From a phage, in the sequence record OZ335963.1: a DNA stretch of 64,000 nucleotides; one strand, 5' to 3'. Shown here one piece after another: positions 33,870 through 64,000 of this stretch (the stretch's first letter is position 1; each line of letters begins with the position of its first letter). The notes below the pieces were generated by a model. That model ran no database searches and was not told the origin of the DNA. It worked only from the letters and a program-made list of their open reading frames with translations. Made by a program: the position numbers and the translations under genes.

Positions 33870-33899
33870 TTTGAATAAATATCTTTAAAAGGAGGGTCT

Positions 33900-34556
33900 A
33901 TGGCAGCACCTAGAATATCATTTTCGCCCTCTGGTATTCTGTTTGGTGTTCTGGATCGCTTGTTCAAAGATAACGCTACCGGGAAGGTTCTTGCTTCCCG
34001 AGTAGCTGTCGTAATTCTTTTATTTATGATGGCGATTGTTTGGTATAGGGGAGATAGTTTCTTTGAGTACTATAAGCAATCAAAGTATGAAACATACAGT
34101 GAAATTATTGAAAAGGAAAGAAACGCACGCTTTGAATCTGTCGCCCTGGAACAACTCCAGATAGTTCATATATCATCTGAGGCAGACTTTAGTGTGGTGT
34201 ATTCTTTCCGCCCTAAAAACTTAAACTATTTTGTTGATATTATAGCATATGAAGGAAAATTACCTTCAACAATAAGTGAAAAATCACTTGGAGGATATCC
34301 TGTTGATAAAACTATGGATGAATATGCAGTTCATTTAAATGGACGTCATTATTATTCCAACTCAAAATTTGCTTTTTTACCAACCAAAAAGCCTACTCCC
34401 GAAATAAATTACATGTACAGTTGTCCATATTTTAATTTGGATAACATCTATGCTGGAACAATAACCATGTACTGGTATAGAAATGATCATATAAGTAATG
34501 ACCGCCTTGAATCAATATGTGCTCAGGCGGCCAGAATATTAGGAAGGGCTAAATAA
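33900..34556 (+). CDS. t: holin T, 218 aa
   Basis: MAAPRISFSPSGILFGVLDRLFKDNATGKVLASRVAVVILLFMMAIVWY... with single TM segment and large C-terminal domain; AAGGAGG SD. Confidence 0.9.
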   Translation: MAAPRISFSPSGILFGVLDRLFKDNATGKVLASRVAVVILLFMMAIVWYRGDSFFEYYKQSKYETYSEIIEKERNARFESVALEQLQIVHISSEADFSVVYSFRPKNLNYFVDIIAYEGKLPSTISEKSLGGYPVDKTMDEYAVHLNGRHYYSNSKFAFLPTKKPTPEINYMYSCPYFNLDNIYAGTITMYWYRNDHISNDRLESICAQAARILGRAK

Positions 34557-58034: not shown

Positions 58035-58280
58035 TTAACCACCAGTTACTTTCCACAAATCTTCATTTGCAGTAATCCATTCAGTACGTTGATTTTCTTC
58101 ATATACTGTAGTATATGCTGCTTTTTCTGAAGGGAATATCTGATAATGAGCGCCAGAAATTTTGTGAACGTCAGAATAAAGAGGGAAAGCTACAGAAATT
58201 TCTTTTCCTTCAATTTTCTTATTTCCATCTAATTTCTGCTCAAATGTTTTAATATTAACATAACCGCGAGTACTAGCCAT
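58035..58280 (-). CDS. soc: small outer capsid protein Soc, 81 aa
   Basis: MASTRGYVNIKTFEQKLDGNKKIEGKEISVAFPLYSDVHKISGAHYQIFP... matches T4 Soc. Confidence 0.9.
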   Translation of the reverse strand: MASTRGYVNIKTFEQKLDGNKKIEGKEISVAFPLYSDVHKISGAHYQIFPSEKAAYTTVYEENQRTEWITANEDLWKVTGG

Positions 58281-58352: not shown

Positions 58353-58871
58353 TTAATAACCTCGGTCTTGACGAGCGAAGTTTTCGGCATTTTTTAGATA
58401 ATAAAGTTTAAAGATTTCTTCAGCCGTAAGACCGAGACCTTGGAACATGTTCAGAACGAAATGAAGAATATCAATCATTTCGAATTTAATTTCCAACTGG
58501 TCTTGCGGAGACAAATCAGTAATTAGAGTTTCACGGCGTTCACCGTGTTGAGCTTTCCAAGGCTTCCATACAGCGGATGCATCTTTTTCACCATTGCTCA
58601 TACCACCAAGAGAAGTCAGAAGTTCGCGGAATTCATCATCAATATAATCTTTCTGATTACGCAACCAATCAACAACTTCGCCTGCGGTAGCCAAATCATC
58701 AGGATGACGGTTATATTCAGGTTTATCTTTAGCTAAACGAACCTGCAGAGATTTCTGCATATCAAGCATAACCTGCAGCGGGTCTTTTTCATCACCGAGA
58801 ATATCCCAGTATTCATTTTGAGCTTTATCAGCGCCTTCAATCAGTTGACTACATTCGTTGAAATGTGGCAT
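58353..58871 (-). CDS. 56: dCTPase/dUTPase gp56 (MazG-like), 172 aa
   Basis: MazG-type NTP pyrophosphatase-like protein of T4 gp56 size, directly upstream of soc; remembered match. Confidence 0.85.
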   Translation of the reverse strand: MPHFNECSQLIEGADKAQNEYWDILGDEKDPLQVMLDMQKSLQVRLAKDKPEYNRHPDDLATAGEVVDWLRNQKDYIDDEFRELLTSLGGMSNGEKDASAVWKPWKAQHGERRETLITDLSPQDQLEIKFEMIDILHFVLNMFQGLGLTAEEIFKLYYLKNAENFARQDRGY

Positions 58872-58872
58872 G

Positions 58873-59523
58873 TTATTTTTCCTTTCTTATGAAGTTTTCT
58901 ATCATATGTCTATAGCAGATATTAGGATAACCTGCCTTGACAGCTATTTTATTAAATTTTGTGCGCTTAGGTCTATTATTATAAACCCATAATTCATAAA
59001 GCGCATCATAACTATTCCATATTTCTCCTCGCCTAGGATTTGGTAAACCATATCGAGGCGAATTTTTACCGCTAAATCTTCCTTTTCGGGCTTTACTCAT
59101 ATTAGCCTTGGCTTCATCGGATATAATTTTACCTTTATGAGCTAGACGCATTTTGGCTTTAGTTTCTTCTGGAGTCTTTTTGCCTTTAATCCATGACGGC
59201 TTGCCATATCTAGGATTATTTTCACCCGAGAAAAGAACAGAGTTTTGGATTTTAAGGGTTTCTATTAATCTACTTGTTAATTTAACACCTTTATTATATC
59301 GCATTAAATTTACAGCATAATGCAATCCTCTCACATCTGGATATATTTTAGTTAATAATCTATGAGCTATAAAATGCTCACGCGCAGTTAACTCAACAAG
59401 ATTGTTTTTGCCATCTGCTCCTCCCATACATCTAGGAATTATATGATGGCGTTCTTTATATCCGCCAAGATGCCGGCATTTAGCTTTTGTAATTAAAGCC
59501 GAGTAAATTTTTTGGTAATTCAC
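58873..59523 (-). CDS. free-standing HNH homing endonuclease with NUMOD3-like repeats, 216 aa
   Basis: HNH motif ERHHIIPRCMGGADGKNNLVELTAREHFIAH; C-terminal ENNPRYGKP / KNSPRYGLP repeats; only in-frame start is GTG at 59523 with AAAGGA SD. Confidence 0.75.
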   Translation of the reverse strand: MNYQKIYSALITKAKCRHLGGYKERHHIIPRCMGGADGKNNLVELTAREHFIAHRLLTKIYPDVRGLHYAVNLMRYNKGVKLTSRLIETLKIQNSVLFSGENNPRYGKPSWIKGKKTPEETKAKMRLAHKGKIISDEAKANMSKARKGRFSGKNSPRYGLPNPRRGEIWNSYDALYELWVYNNRPKRTKFNKIAVKAGYPNICYRHMIENFIRKEK

Positions 59524-59546
59524 ATATATCCTTTCAATTCATGGGT

Positions 59547-59580
59547 TAGTAGATTAATTATACAATAAATATATAAAGCA
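59547..59580 (-). promoter_or_regulatory. MotA-dependent middle promoter (TGCTTTA box, 11 nt, TATAAT)
   Basis: Minus sense TGCTTTA-tatatttattg-TATAAT upstream of the HNH ORF. Confidence 0.45.
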
Positions 59581-59593
59581 ATAAGGAGGATAT

Positions 59594-59794
59594 ATGGTAC
59601 AAAAATTAATGGCACTTGTAGATGCCATAAAAGGTAATAAAAGACGTATAGCTTTTACTATTTCTGCTATGGTAGGAATTTTACTTTGGAATTTTGTTTT
59701 ATCGCCAGTTGCTATTGCTCATGGTGTTAGTATTCCAGTAATTACTCTCGATACATTCGTAGATTTAGCATTTGCTTTAGTTGGGTTAATTTAA
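59594..59794 (+). CDS. small two-helix membrane protein, 66 aa, on the opposite strand
   Basis: Strong SD AAGGAGG 4 nt before ATG; two hydrophobic segments; T4-like codon usage; stop overlaps gene 61 stop. Confidence 0.4.
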   Translation: MVQKLMALVDAIKGNKRRIAFTISAMVGILLWNFVLSPVAIAHGVSIPVITLDTFVDLAFALVGLI

Positions 59795-60819
59795 ATCTTA
59801 GCATATTTAGATAGCCGCATTTTGGCCATCAACCCTTGGGCAATATTATTTTTCATATATTCCATAATTTGTTCAGGGGTTGCACCTTCCTTTCTAATCA
59901 TATCATTAACATCTTTTGATTTCCAGGGAGATTTGTCCCAAAACATAACCCTTTCTCCTGCATCAACCAATTTAGTCATTCGTTTAATAGTATCAGGGTG
60001 ACGAGGTTCATTATCTAAAACCCATACACGTCTATCTTTAAATGGAACAATTTCTAGGTCTAATTGACCACCCGTAATAGCTATACCATTTTCAATAAAA
60101 AGTGAATCTATAGGTCCTTCTAGAACATATACATCACCATCTTTGACCCGTTCAACGCCATAGATTTTTGTTGCCTCAGGATAAGCTTTGATGGTGATAT
60201 ATTTTTGGGGAGCATCTTTCTTTAATGCACGTCCTTGAAAAGACTCAGCTTTTCCGTTAGCATTATAAATTGGAATAACAAGACGAGGCTCAGGTATTTC
60301 CTTTTTATATGTTCCTGGCGCTATACTATTAACTAATTTAGGCCATTCGGTTGTAAACCAAAGATATTTCCATTTATCCTTTGGAATACAACGGGCTTTT
60401 ACATATTTTATAATTGGATGGTCTTCCGCCAGTTTATCTAATCTAATGCATGACGGAAGAGATTTAATTATTTTTTTCTCAGGTTGTTTAGGAAGTTCTT
60501 TAGGTTTTTCTACTGGACGACTTTTACCTTTTTCTTTTCTTATTTCAAAGATATACTCACGATATAAATCGGGTTCAAACTCCTTTAAATATATTCTGAT
60601 TGGTGCATGATAGTTACAGTTATAACAATGAATATTTCCTTCATTATTATCGCCATAATACCATCCACGAGCTTTATTTTGGTCGGTTTTTGAATCTCCA
60701 CAAACAGGGCATCTAAACCGCAATTTAAAAGTTGAACTATTATTTACTTGTGCGAATTTAGGTAAATGAGCCAATGCACGGTATGCAAACTCATTATCAA
60801 TCCAAGGTATTGATGACAT
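59791..60819 (-). CDS. 61: DNA primase gp61, 342 aa
   Basis: N-terminal zinc-binding CPVCGDS...HCYNC and TOPRIM-type core; length matches T4 gp61. Confidence 0.95.
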   Translation of the reverse strand: MSSIPWIDNEFAYRALAHLPKFAQVNNSSTFKLRFRCPVCGDSKTDQNKARGWYYGDNNEGNIHCYNCNYHAPIRIYLKEFEPDLYREYIFEIRKEKGKSRPVEKPKELPKQPEKKIIKSLPSCIRLDKLAEDHPIIKYVKARCIPKDKWKYLWFTTEWPKLVNSIAPGTYKKEIPEPRLVIPIYNANGKAESFQGRALKKDAPQKYITIKAYPEATKIYGVERVKDGDVYVLEGPIDSLFIENGIAITGGQLDLEIVPFKDRRVWVLDNEPRHPDTIKRMTKLVDAGERVMFWDKSPWKSKDVNDMIRKEGATPEQIMEYMKNNIAQGLMAKMRLSKYAKI

Positions 60820-60821
60820 TT

Positions 60822-60986
60822 TTACTCTTCTTTTTCTTTAGATTCCTCTTTTTTCTTTTTAGGAATCTGTTCAGGACCTTTATTTACTACAGCGCCTGAC
60901 GTTGTTCCAGTGGAGATATTTTCAGGATTACCACCTGAGTCTCCAGCTACCATATCTTCTTTAATAAATTCTTTATATGTTTTCAT
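60822..60986 (-). CDS. small acidic/lysine-rich ORF, 54 aa (below ORF-track cutoff)
   Basis: Hand translation MKTYKEFIKEDMVAGDSGGNPEN...KKKKEESKEKEE between 61.2-like ORF and gene 61. Confidence 0.3.
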   Translation of the reverse strand: MKTYKEFIKEDMVAGDSGGNPENISTGTTSGAVVNKGPEQIPKKKKEESKEKEE

Positions 60987-60987
60987 A

Positions 60988-61614
60988 TTAACCTCTATTC
61001 ATAAAAGCATTAAAAATTTGGTCATCAATAGAAACATTTACTTTAGACTGTTTTTCTGATGGTAATTCATATCCACATATTACAATTTTGTGATCAATAT
61101 CAAAATACACAGAAGCAATATGATTAATGATGTTTTCAGTAAAGTCTAAATCAACATCAATATCTTTTTGACCACAGCCCAAAGGATAAATAATGCGAGT
61201 AATTCGATTATCTTTAACAAAGATTCCACCGACATACTCTGTGCTGCGTTTAAAATCTACACGCCGACGAAATGAAAAATATTCAGGCTCTTTATGAGCT
61301 CTGCTCATAGGACACAACGAGTAACTAGAATAAGAGATGTCAAATCCTACGCCTTCAATATGAGCCAAAGTATCATGATTAAACCAATTATAATCGTACG
61401 CCAAATCCATTAGATTATAATATGTAAAAGGCACTGGATTAACATCATTAGTCACAAGCACGTAATTAGCAATTGCTATAATTTCATTGTTTTTAACGAA
61501 TACAAACCGTGATTGATGGGAATGACCTGGACCCGCGTTTTCACGATTAATGATATAACACTGGGCACCTTTATATTTGTATGTATCTTTGCACTTGTGC
61601 ATTTGATAGAGCAT
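60988..61614 (-). CDS. hypothetical protein, 208 aa
   Basis: ORF between sp and gene 61. Confidence 0.55.
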   Translation of the reverse strand: MLYQMHKCKDTYKYKGAQCYIINRENAGPGHSHQSRFVFVKNNEIIAIANYVLVTNDVNPVPFTYYNLMDLAYDYNWFNHDTLAHIEGVGFDISYSSYSLCPMSRAHKEPEYFSFRRRVDFKRSTEYVGGIFVKDNRITRIIYPLGCGQKDIDVDLDFTENIINHIASVYFDIDHKIVICGYELPSEKQSKVNVSIDDQIFNAFMNRG

Positions 61615-61907
61615 TATTCACCTACCACTTCAGCGATGATATTTTTATTATTAAAGTTTTTATCACAATACAGAACATAATTATACTGCATTACACCACC
61701 AGATTTAAGTTGTTTTTGCACTTCAGCTTTCATTTCAGGACGATCACGCTCAACGATATTCATAATATCCGCTTCAATTTGAATTTCAACCTCAGTCTGA
61801 TCTGCAGTCATAGACCACTCGCACAAATCTTTATCATAACCCGCCATAGCAGGCTGAGCAGCACAAGAAGATAAAGCAAAAATTGCAGCAAAGATAAATT
61901 TTTTCAT
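61614..61907 (-). CDS. sp: Spackle periplasmic protein, 97 aa
   Basis: Cleavable signal peptide MKKFIFAAIFALSSCAAQPAMA; size and position as T4 sp. Confidence 0.75.
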   Translation of the reverse strand: MKKFIFAAIFALSSCAAQPAMAGYDKDLCEWSMTADQTEVEIQIEADIMNIVERDRPEMKAEVQKQLKSGGVMQYNYVLYCDKNFNNKNIIAEVVGE

Positions 61908-61935
61908 GATAATCTCCTCAGTAGTTTATGTTCAT

Positions 61936-61965
61936 ATAGTATCTCAATTTCCAACAAAAGTAAAC
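61936..61965 (-). promoter_or_regulatory. T4 early-type promoter upstream of sp
   Basis: Minus sense GTTTAC-18 nt-TACTAT. Confidence 0.45.
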
Positions 61966-62219
61966 TATTTTATTTCCTCAAGTTCGTTAATCAGTAAAAG
62001 TTCTCTGACGCTAAAAACAAAGAAAAATGTGTTCCCATCAACCAGAGCATGACCGCTAATAGAACACCCTCTGCGGAATTTAGAAACTTCACAATCTAGA
62101 ACTGTAAAGGGTTTTAATCCTATGACTTTAGCTATGTGTCTATTCAGTTCACAACCACTTGCGAATTTTTCCAAATCTTCTTCTGATTTAAACTGATATT
62201 CTCTATTAACTAGCATCAT
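61965..62219 (-). CDS. hypothetical protein, 84 aa
   Basis: ORF with early promoter upstream (62232-62290). Confidence 0.45.
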   Translation of the reverse strand: MMLVNREYQFKSEEDLEKFASGCELNRHIAKVIGLKPFTVLDCEVSKFRRGCSISGHALVDGNTFFFVFSVRELLLINELEEIK

Positions 62220-62282
62220 TTTCTTTTCTCCGCGATTAGCTGATAGAATTACTATAACACAACTCTATCAGCTTGTAAACTA

Positions 62283-62567
62283 CTATTTTACTAGCATCAA
62301 TAACTGTTTCTCTAACTTAATAATTTTACGAAAGTATCTTTTGCATTGACGAATCTGCCGCTTCGTAGGGCGCACAGCAAACTTAATAAATTCCACTCGA
62401 CCAAATGGAGGGCTTTCTTCTGATGGAATATCTAACACCAATTCCCACGTATCCGCAATAAGTGCCTTGAATTGAGTATTTTTCCTGACGTTATACGGAG
62501 TAGGTTTAAATAAAACAATATGCATATTACCCTCGGCAATCCACTTCACATACTTTCTTGTCATCAA
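62283..62567 (-). CDS. hypothetical protein, 94 aa
   Basis: ORF downstream of dmd. Confidence 0.45.
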   Translation of the reverse strand: MMTRKYVKWIAEGNMHIVLFKPTPYNVRKNTQFKALIADTWELVLDIPSEESPPFGRVEFIKFAVRPTKRQIRQCKRYFRKIIKLEKQLLMLVK

Positions 62568-62709
62568 TGAAAGCTTTAACTAGCGCTTTATTAACTTCAG
62601 CATATTGAGTAGTAGCCCATTGAACGTCATCTTTCATCATTGTGATTTCTTTAGTAAACATGCTTTCATTCTTAAACCACCCCATAAAAACTACCTTTAC
62701 CAATTCCAT
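62527..62709 (-). CDS. dmd: Dmd antitoxin (inhibitor of host RnlA/LsoA toxins), 60 aa
   Basis: MELVKVVFMGWFKNESMFTKEITMMKDDVQWATTQYAEVNKALVKAFIDDKKVCEVDCRG matches T4 Dmd as I recall it. Confidence 0.75.
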   Translation of the reverse strand: MELVKVVFMGWFKNESMFTKEITMMKDDVQWATTQYAEVNKALVKAFIDDKKVCEVDCRG

Positions 62710-62738
62710 AACAATCTCCTCATTTAACCAACAAGACT

Positions 62739-62768
62739 ACTATACCATAGTCTTGTTGGCTTGTAAAC
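62739..62768 (-). promoter_or_regulatory. T4 early-type promoter upstream of dmd
   Basis: Minus sense GTTTAC-18 nt-TATAGT directly after gene 41 stop. Confidence 0.5.
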
Positions 62769-64000
62769 TAAAATTTTAATTCATTTGCCAAAGCATCTAA
62801 CTGAGCTCGAGCTGATTCGTTTCTTTGATAGCGATTCTGTTCAGCCTGAATCTGCTGTGAACCTGCTACTTCGTTTACTTCGGTTGGAGTAGAATCTTGC
62901 TCAATTTCTACCCATTTTTGATTTCCTTTTTGAACACCCATCAAAAACTTATTCCATTTATTCTTATCACCATATCGTGATTTGATTTGCTTAATGAGTT
63001 GTTGTTCAGCGGCTGCTAACTCCTCGGTTTCAATGACCGCAAGCATAAAATCGGCTGTTGCTGGAAGACCGGCAGATTCTGCAATATCGCTCATGTTAAC
63101 ATCAGAAGAATCCCAAGCTTGCTTACCAACCTGTGCTGCAGTCCAAAGAACAGTTTCGGTTTCAACAGCCAGAGCACGCAATTCTTCTGCGATGGCTTTA
63201 ACAGTTGTGTAACTATTTTCTGAATAAACTCTGATGCGACAAGATTTACAAATACCCAGATAGTCAACAATAATGATTGTTGGAACAAAATTCTTCTTGA
63301 GCTTTAATTCGTTTAAAAGCGATCGAAATGTATTAGCGTCTGCTCCACCAGTAGGATATTGCTTAACGATTAAACGACCGAGAGTAGATTTCTCACGCCA
63401 TTTTTCCATTTTTCCTTTATACTCAGCGTAAGAAATATGCCCATCATCAATGTCATCAAGAGAAACATCAAGCATGTTAGCGTCAATACGCTTAGCACAG
63501 ACTTCTTCTGCCATTTCCATGGAAATGTAAAGAACATTGTGTCCGAGTTGTAAATAATCCGCTGCCAATGAACACAGACCTAATGACTTACCGACGTTAA
63601 CACCAGCCATTAAAACGTTCAGTGTTCCAGTTTCAGCTCCACCTTTAGTAATTTTATTTAGAATTTTGAGTCTAAATGGAACCTTACGAGCTTTATTCAT
63701 ATAAGATAGCCAACGTGCTTCGTAGTCATCCATCCAATCATGACCAACGTAACTATCAAATGAAATTGATAATGCTTGGCGCATGATGTCAGGAATAGCG
63801 CCAACATCCGGCATTTTCTTATTTCGTTTTTCTGGAGGAAGCTCAGCATTAGTTTGAATTTCAATTATTTTAGACGTAGCATTAAACATCGCCCTTTGCT
63901 GAACATATTTTTCTGTTTCTTTTACTAACCAGCTGTGGTCTTCTGGAGAATCGGCTAGTTTCGAAATAAGTGTTTTTACACCAGAATATTCTGTTTCAGT
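62768..64000 (-). CDS. 41: replicative DNA helicase gp41, C-terminal ~410 aa (5' end beyond window)
   Basis: Walker A MAGVNVGKS and DnaB-family motifs; frame stays open past the listed Met to the window edge (...DHSWLVKETEKYVQQRAMFNATSK). Confidence 0.95.
   Translation of the reverse strand, partial: TETEYSGVKTLISKLADSPEDHSWLVKETEKYVQQRAMFNATSKIIEIQTNAELPPEKRNKKMPDVGAIPDIMRQALSISFDSYVGHDWMDDYEARWLSYMNKARKVPFRLKILNKITKGGAETGTLNVLMAGVNVGKSLGLCSLAADYLQLGHNVLYISMEMAEEVCAKRIDANMLDVSLDDIDDGHISYAEYKGKMEKWREKSTLGRLIVKQYPTGGADANTFRSLLNELKLKKNFVPTIIIVDYLGICKSCRIRVYSENSYTTVKAIAEELRALAVETETVLWTAAQVGKQAWDSSDVNMSDIAESAGLPATADFMLAVIETEELAAAEQQLIKQIKSRYGDKNKWNKFLMGVQKGNQKWVEIEQDSTPTEVNEVAGSQQIQAEQNRYQRNESARAQLDALANELKF

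Follow-up and report, generated by a model that had tools for sequence, protein, structure and literature searches.

A small gene for a predicted membrane protein, convergent with primase gene 61 in T4-type phages, conserved in position and preceded by late-type expression signals

The window analysed here is a stretch of 64,000 nucleotides (nt) of phage DNA (sequence record OZ335963.1), in which a small open reading frame (ORF) lies on the plus strand at 59594-59794, in the part of a T4-type (Tequatrovirus) genome that runs from gene 56 to gene 61. A first-pass annotation had described it as a membrane-protein frame and had offered two explanations, cargo of an adjoining HNH endonuclease insertion or a chance ORF. 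We find that the small ORF is a true gene of the T-even backbone, passed on by vertical inheritance and standing outside the HNH insert, and that it is a member of the already annotated, uncharacterised PHROG 2024 family, annotated in hundreds of relatives. The best explanation overall is a conserved backbone gene which is probably expressed late and probably encodes an inner-membrane protein. An accessory role in late envelope events, such as the control of lysis timing or of the holin-endolysin pathway, is weakly inferred and is put forward tentatively. The features of the gene are the following:

59594..59794, plus strand: coding sequence (CDS) of the small ORF, 66 amino acids (aa), ATG at 59594 and TAA at 59792-59794; PHROG 2024 family, orthologue of RB69ORF029w
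59564..59571, plus strand: late-promoter-type box AATAAATA; the T4 consensus is TATAAATA at -13..-6, with A at -13 here
59583..59589, plus strand: Shine-Dalgarno (SD) sequence AAGGAGG, 4 nt before the ATG
59648..59719, plus strand: single predicted transmembrane (TM) helix, codons 19-42, preceded by a K/R cluster (net +4)
59687..59752, plus strand: conserved core W32-N33-x4-P38-x-A40-x3-G44-x3-P48-x4-D53, codons 32-53

The coordinates and the length of 66 codons given in the first-pass annotation are correct. The length alone is not significant, because 19 plus-strand ATG-started ORFs of at least 40 aa occur between 48 and 64 kilobases (kb); the small ORF is the only one of them with a strong SD. 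The evidence that it is more than a chance frame is conservation at the sequence level. Among eight unique Tequatrovirus sequences the ratio of non-synonymous to synonymous differences per site (pN/pS) is 0.16 in the small-ORF frame, with zero stops, against 0.29-1.29 in the five other frames. The window and T4 copies differ by 9 synonymous and 6 non-synonymous changes (Fisher p = 0.002); in the comparison of the window with RB69 synonymous sites are saturated (pS 0.79) while pN is 0.33 (p = 3e-8), and the protein can still be aligned. A comparable constraint acts on soc, a late gene nearby, and protein searches gave about 120 protein clusters of 57-73 aa from T4-type phage contigs and assemblies, with no frame-breaking differences. 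Purifying selection on the reading frame is thereby strongly supported. Conservation and synonymous substitution across related phages had been named in the first-pass annotation as a way to check the ORF, and their analysis gives selection specific to this frame, which is kept.

These data bear directly on the proposal of a chance ORF opposite the middle promoter, in a spacer conserved for promoters and terminator only, which we regard as very improbable. The non-coding strand does hold many spurious ORFs of 40-97 aa, and the region contains a terminator-like hairpin and, in the relative SA20RB, an annotated opposite-strand promoter. Against this, the signature of selection is specific to the small-ORF frame, the protein is conserved despite saturated synonymous sites and also in unrelated genomic contexts, the hairpin is not conserved beyond Tequatrovirus, and no other plus-strand ORF in 48-64 kb has a strong SD. 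Purifying selection together with cross-genus conservation excludes the proposal, and the view of the small ORF as a real membrane-protein gene with strong translation signals is borne out.

A small gene of 60-66 aa that is convergent with the primase gene and keeps its location and strand is found in Tequatrovirus, Mosigvirus (RB69ORF029w, 49% identity), Dhakavirus, Gaprivervirus, Kanagawavirus and unclassified Klebsiella phages (K65 and HMGUkp2), and a further T4-type contig (L037) has it at the same position. The arrangement, on the plus strand, convergent with gene 61 and upstream of gene 56, was seen in T4, RB69, KLB31, K65, a Dhakavirus, SP18, HMGUkp2 and L037. Retention of the gene at one place and on one strand in at least six T4-type lineages is thus strongly supported by genome comparison. 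Its absence is confined to genomes in which gene 61 lies directly against gene 56 or against other genes of its own strand, as seen in Krischvirus, Slopekvirus, Muldoonvirus and Roskildevirus. Scans of IMG/VR with single proteins gave 11 loci.

Two alleles can be distinguished, type A (T4, RB69, SP18; ...AIKGNKKR...LWNF..P.A.AHG...P...LD) and type B (Dhaka, Kanagawa and Klebsiella phages; ...LWNL.VVP.AA.QG..LP..T.EH...). Shigella phage SP18 (GQ981382; Gaprivervirus) carries an intact type-A copy (locus L020 2641-2838, minus strand, not annotated), and the 3' remnant of a type-B copy (WNLLVVPIAATQG...GIPS*) abuts its primase stop (region L020 2529-2838), which is direct evidence of allelic replacement by recombination. 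In T4 the small ORF lies at NC_000866 17738..17938 on the plus strand, within a 309-nt unannotated gap between dam and gene 61; the T4 reference genome NC_000866.4 has no CDS for it, and the same is true of the SP18 reference record. Within the collection searched, no NCBI accession corresponds exactly to the T4 protein, which was found only among Logan and ENA gene calls.

Membership of PHROG 2024 is supported by a full-length match (E = 8.8e-30, 103 bits, residues 2-66 on profile positions 1-65 of 65), and the distant member P0135 also matches this profile (E = 1.3e-9). The hypothetical proteins RB69ORF029w and RB32ORF030w agree with the small ORF in size, position, strand and TM prediction, and it belongs with them. 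Pfam and NCBIfam scans gave no match for the 26 members, and no Pfam family, Imm included, was reached at E = 1; an Rfam scan gave no match either. Foldseek comparison of the AlphaFold2 model with PDB and BFVD returned orthologues and noise only. Across 1.84 billion representatives, an exhaustive hidden Markov model search yielded only 21 small proteins, to none of which a function is assigned. The search of phage records with P0135 gave no match, and that with a prophage homologue led through weak matches back to the small gene in T4-type phages only. Literature searches on the RB69 and RB32 ORF names, on unannotated T4 small proteins and on T4 ribosome profiling returned nothing on the small gene. 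Two functional labels attached to orthologues were rejected: 'Holin' in UniProt (OE5505), which is automatic and unsupported, and 'putative head morphogenesis protein' (T6 AP018814; BW-1), which is a propagated name. The T6 record, which sets the start of the small ORF at Met6, names soc 'terminase small subunit' and gp56 'ferredoxin', and the head-morphogenesis label is unreliable because of these misnamings.

The genes and sites around the small ORF are these:

58035-58280, minus strand: soc
58353-58871, minus strand: gene 56, dCTPase
58873..59523, minus strand: HNH/NUMOD3 homing-endonuclease ORF (context), in a separate mobile insert of about 58887-59528 that separates the start of gene 56 from the backbone with the small ORF
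59599..59628, minus strand: terminator-like hairpin with T-run on the primase strand, inside small-ORF codons 2-12
59791-60819, minus strand: primase gene 61, then 61.1, 61.2 and sp
59791..59794: TTAA stop-codon overlap between the small ORF (plus strand) and gene 61 (minus strand)

As the first-pass annotation had noted, the block is dominated by the minus strand (in 48-64 kb, ORFs of 80 aa or more number 23 on the minus strand, with 4375 aa in all, and 4 on the plus strand, with 456 aa), and the small ORF fills the gap between the HNH ORF and gene 61 and ends in a stop-to-stop overlap with the latter, the 4-nt TTAA. By annotated coordinates the same 4-nt overlap is found in T4, RB69, KLB31, a Dhakavirus, HMGUkp2 and L037.

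The suggestion that the small ORF is cargo of the HNH homing-endonuclease insertion has as its sole support the adjacency of the two in the window, and we consider it scarcely credible. At 80% identity or more, the small ORF is found in 503 records (tblastn), the same number as the primase gene at that threshold, and it occurs in essentially all Tequatrovirus records, whereas the HNH-containing arrangement occurs in 32 of the 797 matching records. The small ORF is present in T4, where dam takes the place of the HNH gene at the same junction, in RB69, and in SA20RB, EC121 and others, where the junction has no insert. Alignment to SA20RB places the bounds of the insert at about 58887-59528, flanked by a repeated tcctttc that corresponds to the gene 56 SD, and these bounds leave the small ORF outside; the ORF, its SD, the promoter box and 35 nt upstream are backbone DNA, 94% identical to that of HNH-free phages. 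A Dhakavirus has at the same junction between gene 56 and the small ORF an HNH gene whose product is 78% identical in aa sequence to that of the window (locus L019 2789-3445), but its primase is only 61.5% identical and its small ORF can be aligned over 25 residues only. The endonuclease therefore moves independently of the small ORF, since a similar HNH gene adjoins a very different allele, and the contrast between the two identities indicates homing between genera. The cargo proposal is accordingly not supported on any of these four grounds: distribution, presence in T4 and SA20RB, insert bounds and the Dhakavirus allele. On the other side of the insert, gp56 of the window is 74% identical to T4 gp56 and 83% to RB69 gp56, and the flanking genes are close to T4 (primase 98%, small ORF 91% identical); gene 56 is thus a mosaic patch beside the endonuclease insertion site.

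The near-consensus SD with a 4-nt spacer reported in the first-pass annotation was found at 59583-59589. AAGGAGG occurs only twice on the two strands of the window, and the other copy directly precedes holin gene t. All 15 loci examined have AGGAG(G) or GGAGG with a 4-6 nt spacer, and in 15 of 15 an ATAAATA stands 12-22 nt before the ATG, against a background rate in the genome of 1.25e-4 per nt, or about 0.4% per 30-nt stretch. The constant presence of a strong predicted ribosome-binding site and of an (N)ATAAATA box at late-promoter distance is strongly supported by this comparison. The T4 box still lies at the same distance, although the stretch before the SD there bears no relation to its counterpart in the window.

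The consensus of T4 late promoters is TATAAATA at -13..-6, without need of a -35 element, and among T4-type phages position -13 shows the lowest conservation (PMC2988020, PMC1524935); A(-13) is found in 9 of 50 listed T4 late promoters (PMC2988020). At this position the small gene has T, which gives a perfect TATAAATA, in Dhakavirus and HMGUkp2, A in the window and RB69, and C in SP18, KLB31 and K65. The box AATAAATA is depleted in the window, with 5 copies against 13 +/- 3.8 in dinucleotide shuffles; TATAAATA is likewise depleted (7 against 9.5). Boxes of the type [T/A]ATAAATA with a downstream ATG-started ORF of more than 40 aa are found in the window at genes 34, 36, t, soc and the small ORF, with an SD-like motif detected at all of them but gene 36. 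The layout at gene t (33874-33902) is AATAAATA, 11 nt, AAGGAGG, 4 nt and ATG; that of the small ORF (59564-59596) is the same with 15 nt in place of 11. Like a T4 late gene, the small ORF has a TATAAATA-type box and a short AT-rich leader. Scanning of 59300-60100 for sigma70-type promoters gave promoter-like sites at chance level, none of them directly upstream of the small ORF and the nearest on the plus strand at 59330-59359. Late transcription in T4 requires gp55, gp33 and gp45 and sets in once DNA replication has begun. From the conserved box at late-promoter distance and the likeness of the layout to gene t, we infer that the small ORF is transcribed late, in a gp55-dependent manner, from near 59577.

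Such a transcript would probably run antisense into gene 61, because there is no plus-strand terminator-like site within 4 kb (none was found on either strand in 59700-63900). This raises the question of a main function at the RNA level, in which a late antisense transcript into gene 61 would shut down the primase mRNA and the ORF would be secondary. The two genes converge and their stops overlap; the hairpin at 59599-59628, which is probably the gene 61 terminator, lies inside the small ORF, so that the two mRNAs would be complementary over about 190 nt; and T4 late transcripts of either polarity are known (PMC2988020). An antisense function would, however, need neither an open frame nor a consensus SD nor amino-acid conservation at saturated synonymous sites, and homologues occur in unrelated contexts without a primase gene nearby. 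We therefore judge this explanation improbable as the main function; antisense and protein roles are nevertheless compatible with each other. The hairpin is present in the window and in T4 and is weak or absent in other lineages, and was rejected as the cause of the conservation since it is Tequatrovirus-specific. In Klebsiella phage K65_evo10, where the small ORF and the primase gene do not overlap, a GC-rich hairpin (AGGGGCtttgGCCCCT; L006 2663-2680) lies between them and looks like a bidirectional terminator.

The first-pass annotation had predicted two hydrophobic helices, of which one stands. Residues 19-42 are of TM grade, with a summed Hessa free energy (dG) of about +0.7 (-2.4 to +3.8 in the family, save one truncated member), whereas the C-terminal segment 47-66 is not (dG +6.2; family +3 to +12.6); topology prediction, which the same annotation had named as a check, therefore gives a single TM segment at about residues 19-42. 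The N-terminal 18 residues form a predicted amphipathic helix with a K/R cluster (net +4) at its end, and this basic cluster predicts an N-in/C-out orientation by the positive-inside rule. The last 23 residues are hydrophobic yet acidic (net -2; family 0 to -2) and of TM grade in no member. The AlphaFold2 model has helices at 2-12, 16-42 and 52-63, with a mean predicted local distance difference test score (pLDDT) of 78, and the RB69 orthologue was described as a novel ORF with one TM segment by TMHMM at residues 21-41 (Nolan 2006). In the 26-member alignment W32, N33 and P38 are invariant, A40, G44, P48 and G64 are nearly so, and position 53 is D or E in nearly all aligned members. The core runs from the outer end of the TM helix into the beginning of the C-terminal tail, and the most distant members keep it, with occasional conservative changes such as Y-N or W-D.

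The distant homologues lie in other genomic contexts. In metagenomic phages the order is tail tip, a 94-aa TM-plus-coiled-coil protein that matches generic coiled-coil models only, endonuclease VII, the small TM gene and a minor-tail-like gene of PHROG 1924 (E = 7e-8); the small TM gene often has an ATGA overlap, and a T4-type lysozyme gene is 0.9-6 kb away. Its start overlaps the stop of endonuclease VII in two lineages (L033 6543-7159; L034 6534-7153/L035), which suggests translational coupling, and in L032 (6553-7210) it is directly downstream of endonuclease VII. E. coli prophages have the homologue as their last gene (EC28 L040 22302-22514, WP_047667744.1; L036 7001-7204); one of these prophages is inserted in yegD, in 25 of 5426 complete genomes, and another adjoins bssR. 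About 1.5 kb from an E. coli prophage homologue are a T4-type lysozyme and an 81-aa protein called DUF2730 by the prokaryotic genome annotation pipeline (PGAP), the family of Mu gp25 'releasin' (PMC9239132). A GIY-YIG fragment is also found near the E. coli prophage homologues. The distant contexts are compatible with a late role and give a hint of lysis, and a tail-associated or exclusion-moron role fits them about equally.

With these elements a course of events can be proposed. The gene would be transcribed late by the gp55/gp33/gp45-RNA polymerase from about 59577, giving a short-leader and effectively monocistronic message that would continue antisense into gene 61. One TM helix, at about residues 19-42, would hold the 66-aa product in the inner membrane, with the basic N-terminus facing the cytoplasm and an acidic amphipathic tail of 23 residues at the periplasmic face; its action would depend on the invariant W-N-x4-P core, at the outer end of the helix, and on the near-invariant A, G and P after it. 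A lysis-related role is tentatively suggested because the expression signals are like those of holin gene t and because the distant homologues lie in late tail/lysis clusters, among whose members are T4-type lysozymes and TM-coiled-coil proteins. One may speculate further, with slightly less confidence than in the accessory role itself, that the protein, retained by essentially all T-even phages, has an overlooked part in the late control of the T4 envelope, either modulating holin T or lysis inhibition or blocking secondary DNA entry at a late stage, and acts through W-N-x4-P-x-A-x3-G-x3-P at the periplasmic face as a module reused in tail/lysis clusters of unrelated phages and in E. coli prophages.

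Several observations weigh against a late, lysis-related protein. The small gene of T4-type phages lies away from e, t, rI and the spanin genes, and the link with lysis is circumstantial; the family has no holin or antiholin Pfam match and no structural neighbour. In the distant phages its immediate neighbours are endonuclease VII and the PHROG 1924 minor-tail-like protein and not lysis genes alone, and the 81-aa prophage neighbour scores 22.3 bits against the DUF2730 Pfam model, below the cut-off of 24.9. The -13 base of the T4 box is G, a rarer departure from the consensus, no late promoter was predicted before RB69ORF029w (Nolan 2006), and the one T4 omics paper examined makes no mention of antisense, unannotated or strand-specific analysis. 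Truncated copies exist in some lineages, so that the gene is dispensable at least sometimes.

A function in superinfection exclusion or immunity was also considered, with an inner-membrane protein that would keep out the DNA of secondary phages or stop them at a receptor-proximal step. The predicted small single-pass inner-membrane protein would suit this function; the E. coli prophage homologue is the last gene at the host junction after the tail-tip genes, a typical position of exclusion morons; and two very different alleles have been exchanged in SP18, as expected of a gene exposed to diversifying pressure from hosts or phages. The exclusion proteins of T4, Imm and Sp, are encoded by early genes, whereas the only conserved signal at the small ORF is the late-type box, which makes an Imm-like early exclusion role less likely; neither homology to the Imm/Sp type nor early expression signals were found, the Pfam scan at E = 1 having returned no family. 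Exclusion is on this basis rather unlikely, though better placed than the remaining alternative, a membrane-associated helper of morphogenesis, for instance of tail or head assembly at the inner membrane. The metagenomic small gene lies between tail-tip and minor-tail-like (PHROG 1924) genes and the late-gene signals resemble those of the structural genes 34, 36 and soc, but the 'head morphogenesis' label comes from an unreliable annotation chain (T6, BW-1), no homology to gp40 or similar proteins was found, and no T4 assembly step is known to lack a membrane factor of such kind. An assembly helper is thus improbable, and a conserved, probably late-expressed envelope protein of the phage backbone, possibly related to lysis, is the reading that we retain.

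Work on lysis, lysis inhibition and late transcription takes T4 as its reference phage, and the RefSeq gene list of T4 underlies most omics and genetic screens. This list omits the small gene despite its conservation across lineages, its own late-type box and its consensus ribosome-binding site, and because of the omission RefSeq-based expression, proteomic and knock-down screens would not cover it. Its addition to the T4 annotation is simple and gives a well-defined candidate for late envelope functions. For the window itself, the small ORF is no HNH payload and is an ordinary hypothetical gene; what deserves attention is its absence from the T4 and SP18 reference annotations.

Among known systems, the overlap with gene 61 invites comparison with type I toxin-antitoxin pairs, since the 3' untranslated region (UTR) of gene 61 is antisense to the small ORF; there is no Rfam family match, and the antisense overlap is a by-product of convergent genes. 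T4 Imm is an early gene product with two TM segments. The small-ORF product resembles it as a small inner-membrane protein of a T-even phage, and differs in that no Imm Pfam match was obtained at E = 1 and in having late-type signals only. Mu gp25 'releasin' (DUF2730; PMC9239132) is likewise a single-TM phage protein, involved in lysis; the DUF2730-like protein is, however, a neighbour of the prophage homologue and not a homologue of the small ORF.

Closer likenesses are found among the proteins of lysis control. Small holins (class II and pinholins such as S21, and T4 T) are small, membrane-inserted and late, as is predicted for the small-ORF product, which has at least one TM domain (residues about 19-42). 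Holins permeabilise the inner membrane at a set time, with lethal effect, and so release endolysin. The small-ORF product differs from them in having one TM-grade segment only and its charged end at the N-terminus: in place of the highly charged, usually basic C-terminal cytoplasmic tail of holins, the last 23 residues are hydrophobic or acidic, with a net charge of -2 to 0. Among the 26 members neither Pfam nor NCBIfam gave a holin match, no structural match was obtained, and T4-type phages already encode holin T. As to linkage with an endolysin gene, the small gene has none in T4-type phages, and the distant homologues have a T4-type lysozyme gene 0.9-6 kb away. A dual-start (M1/M6) holin-like motif was rejected, as it is not conserved beyond Tequatrovirus and no SD precedes M6. 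The likeness to the holin gene t is instead one of expression, with the same layout of promoter box, SD and spacer in the window. The T4 antiholin RI, part of the lysis-inhibition system, has a releasable signal-anchor and a folded domain; no sequence similarity to it was detected and the small-ORF tail has only about 23 residues, but the predicted N-terminal membrane segment, the predicted periplasmic C-terminal part, which could touch a partner in the periplasm, and the predicted late role are features that the small ORF would share with RI.

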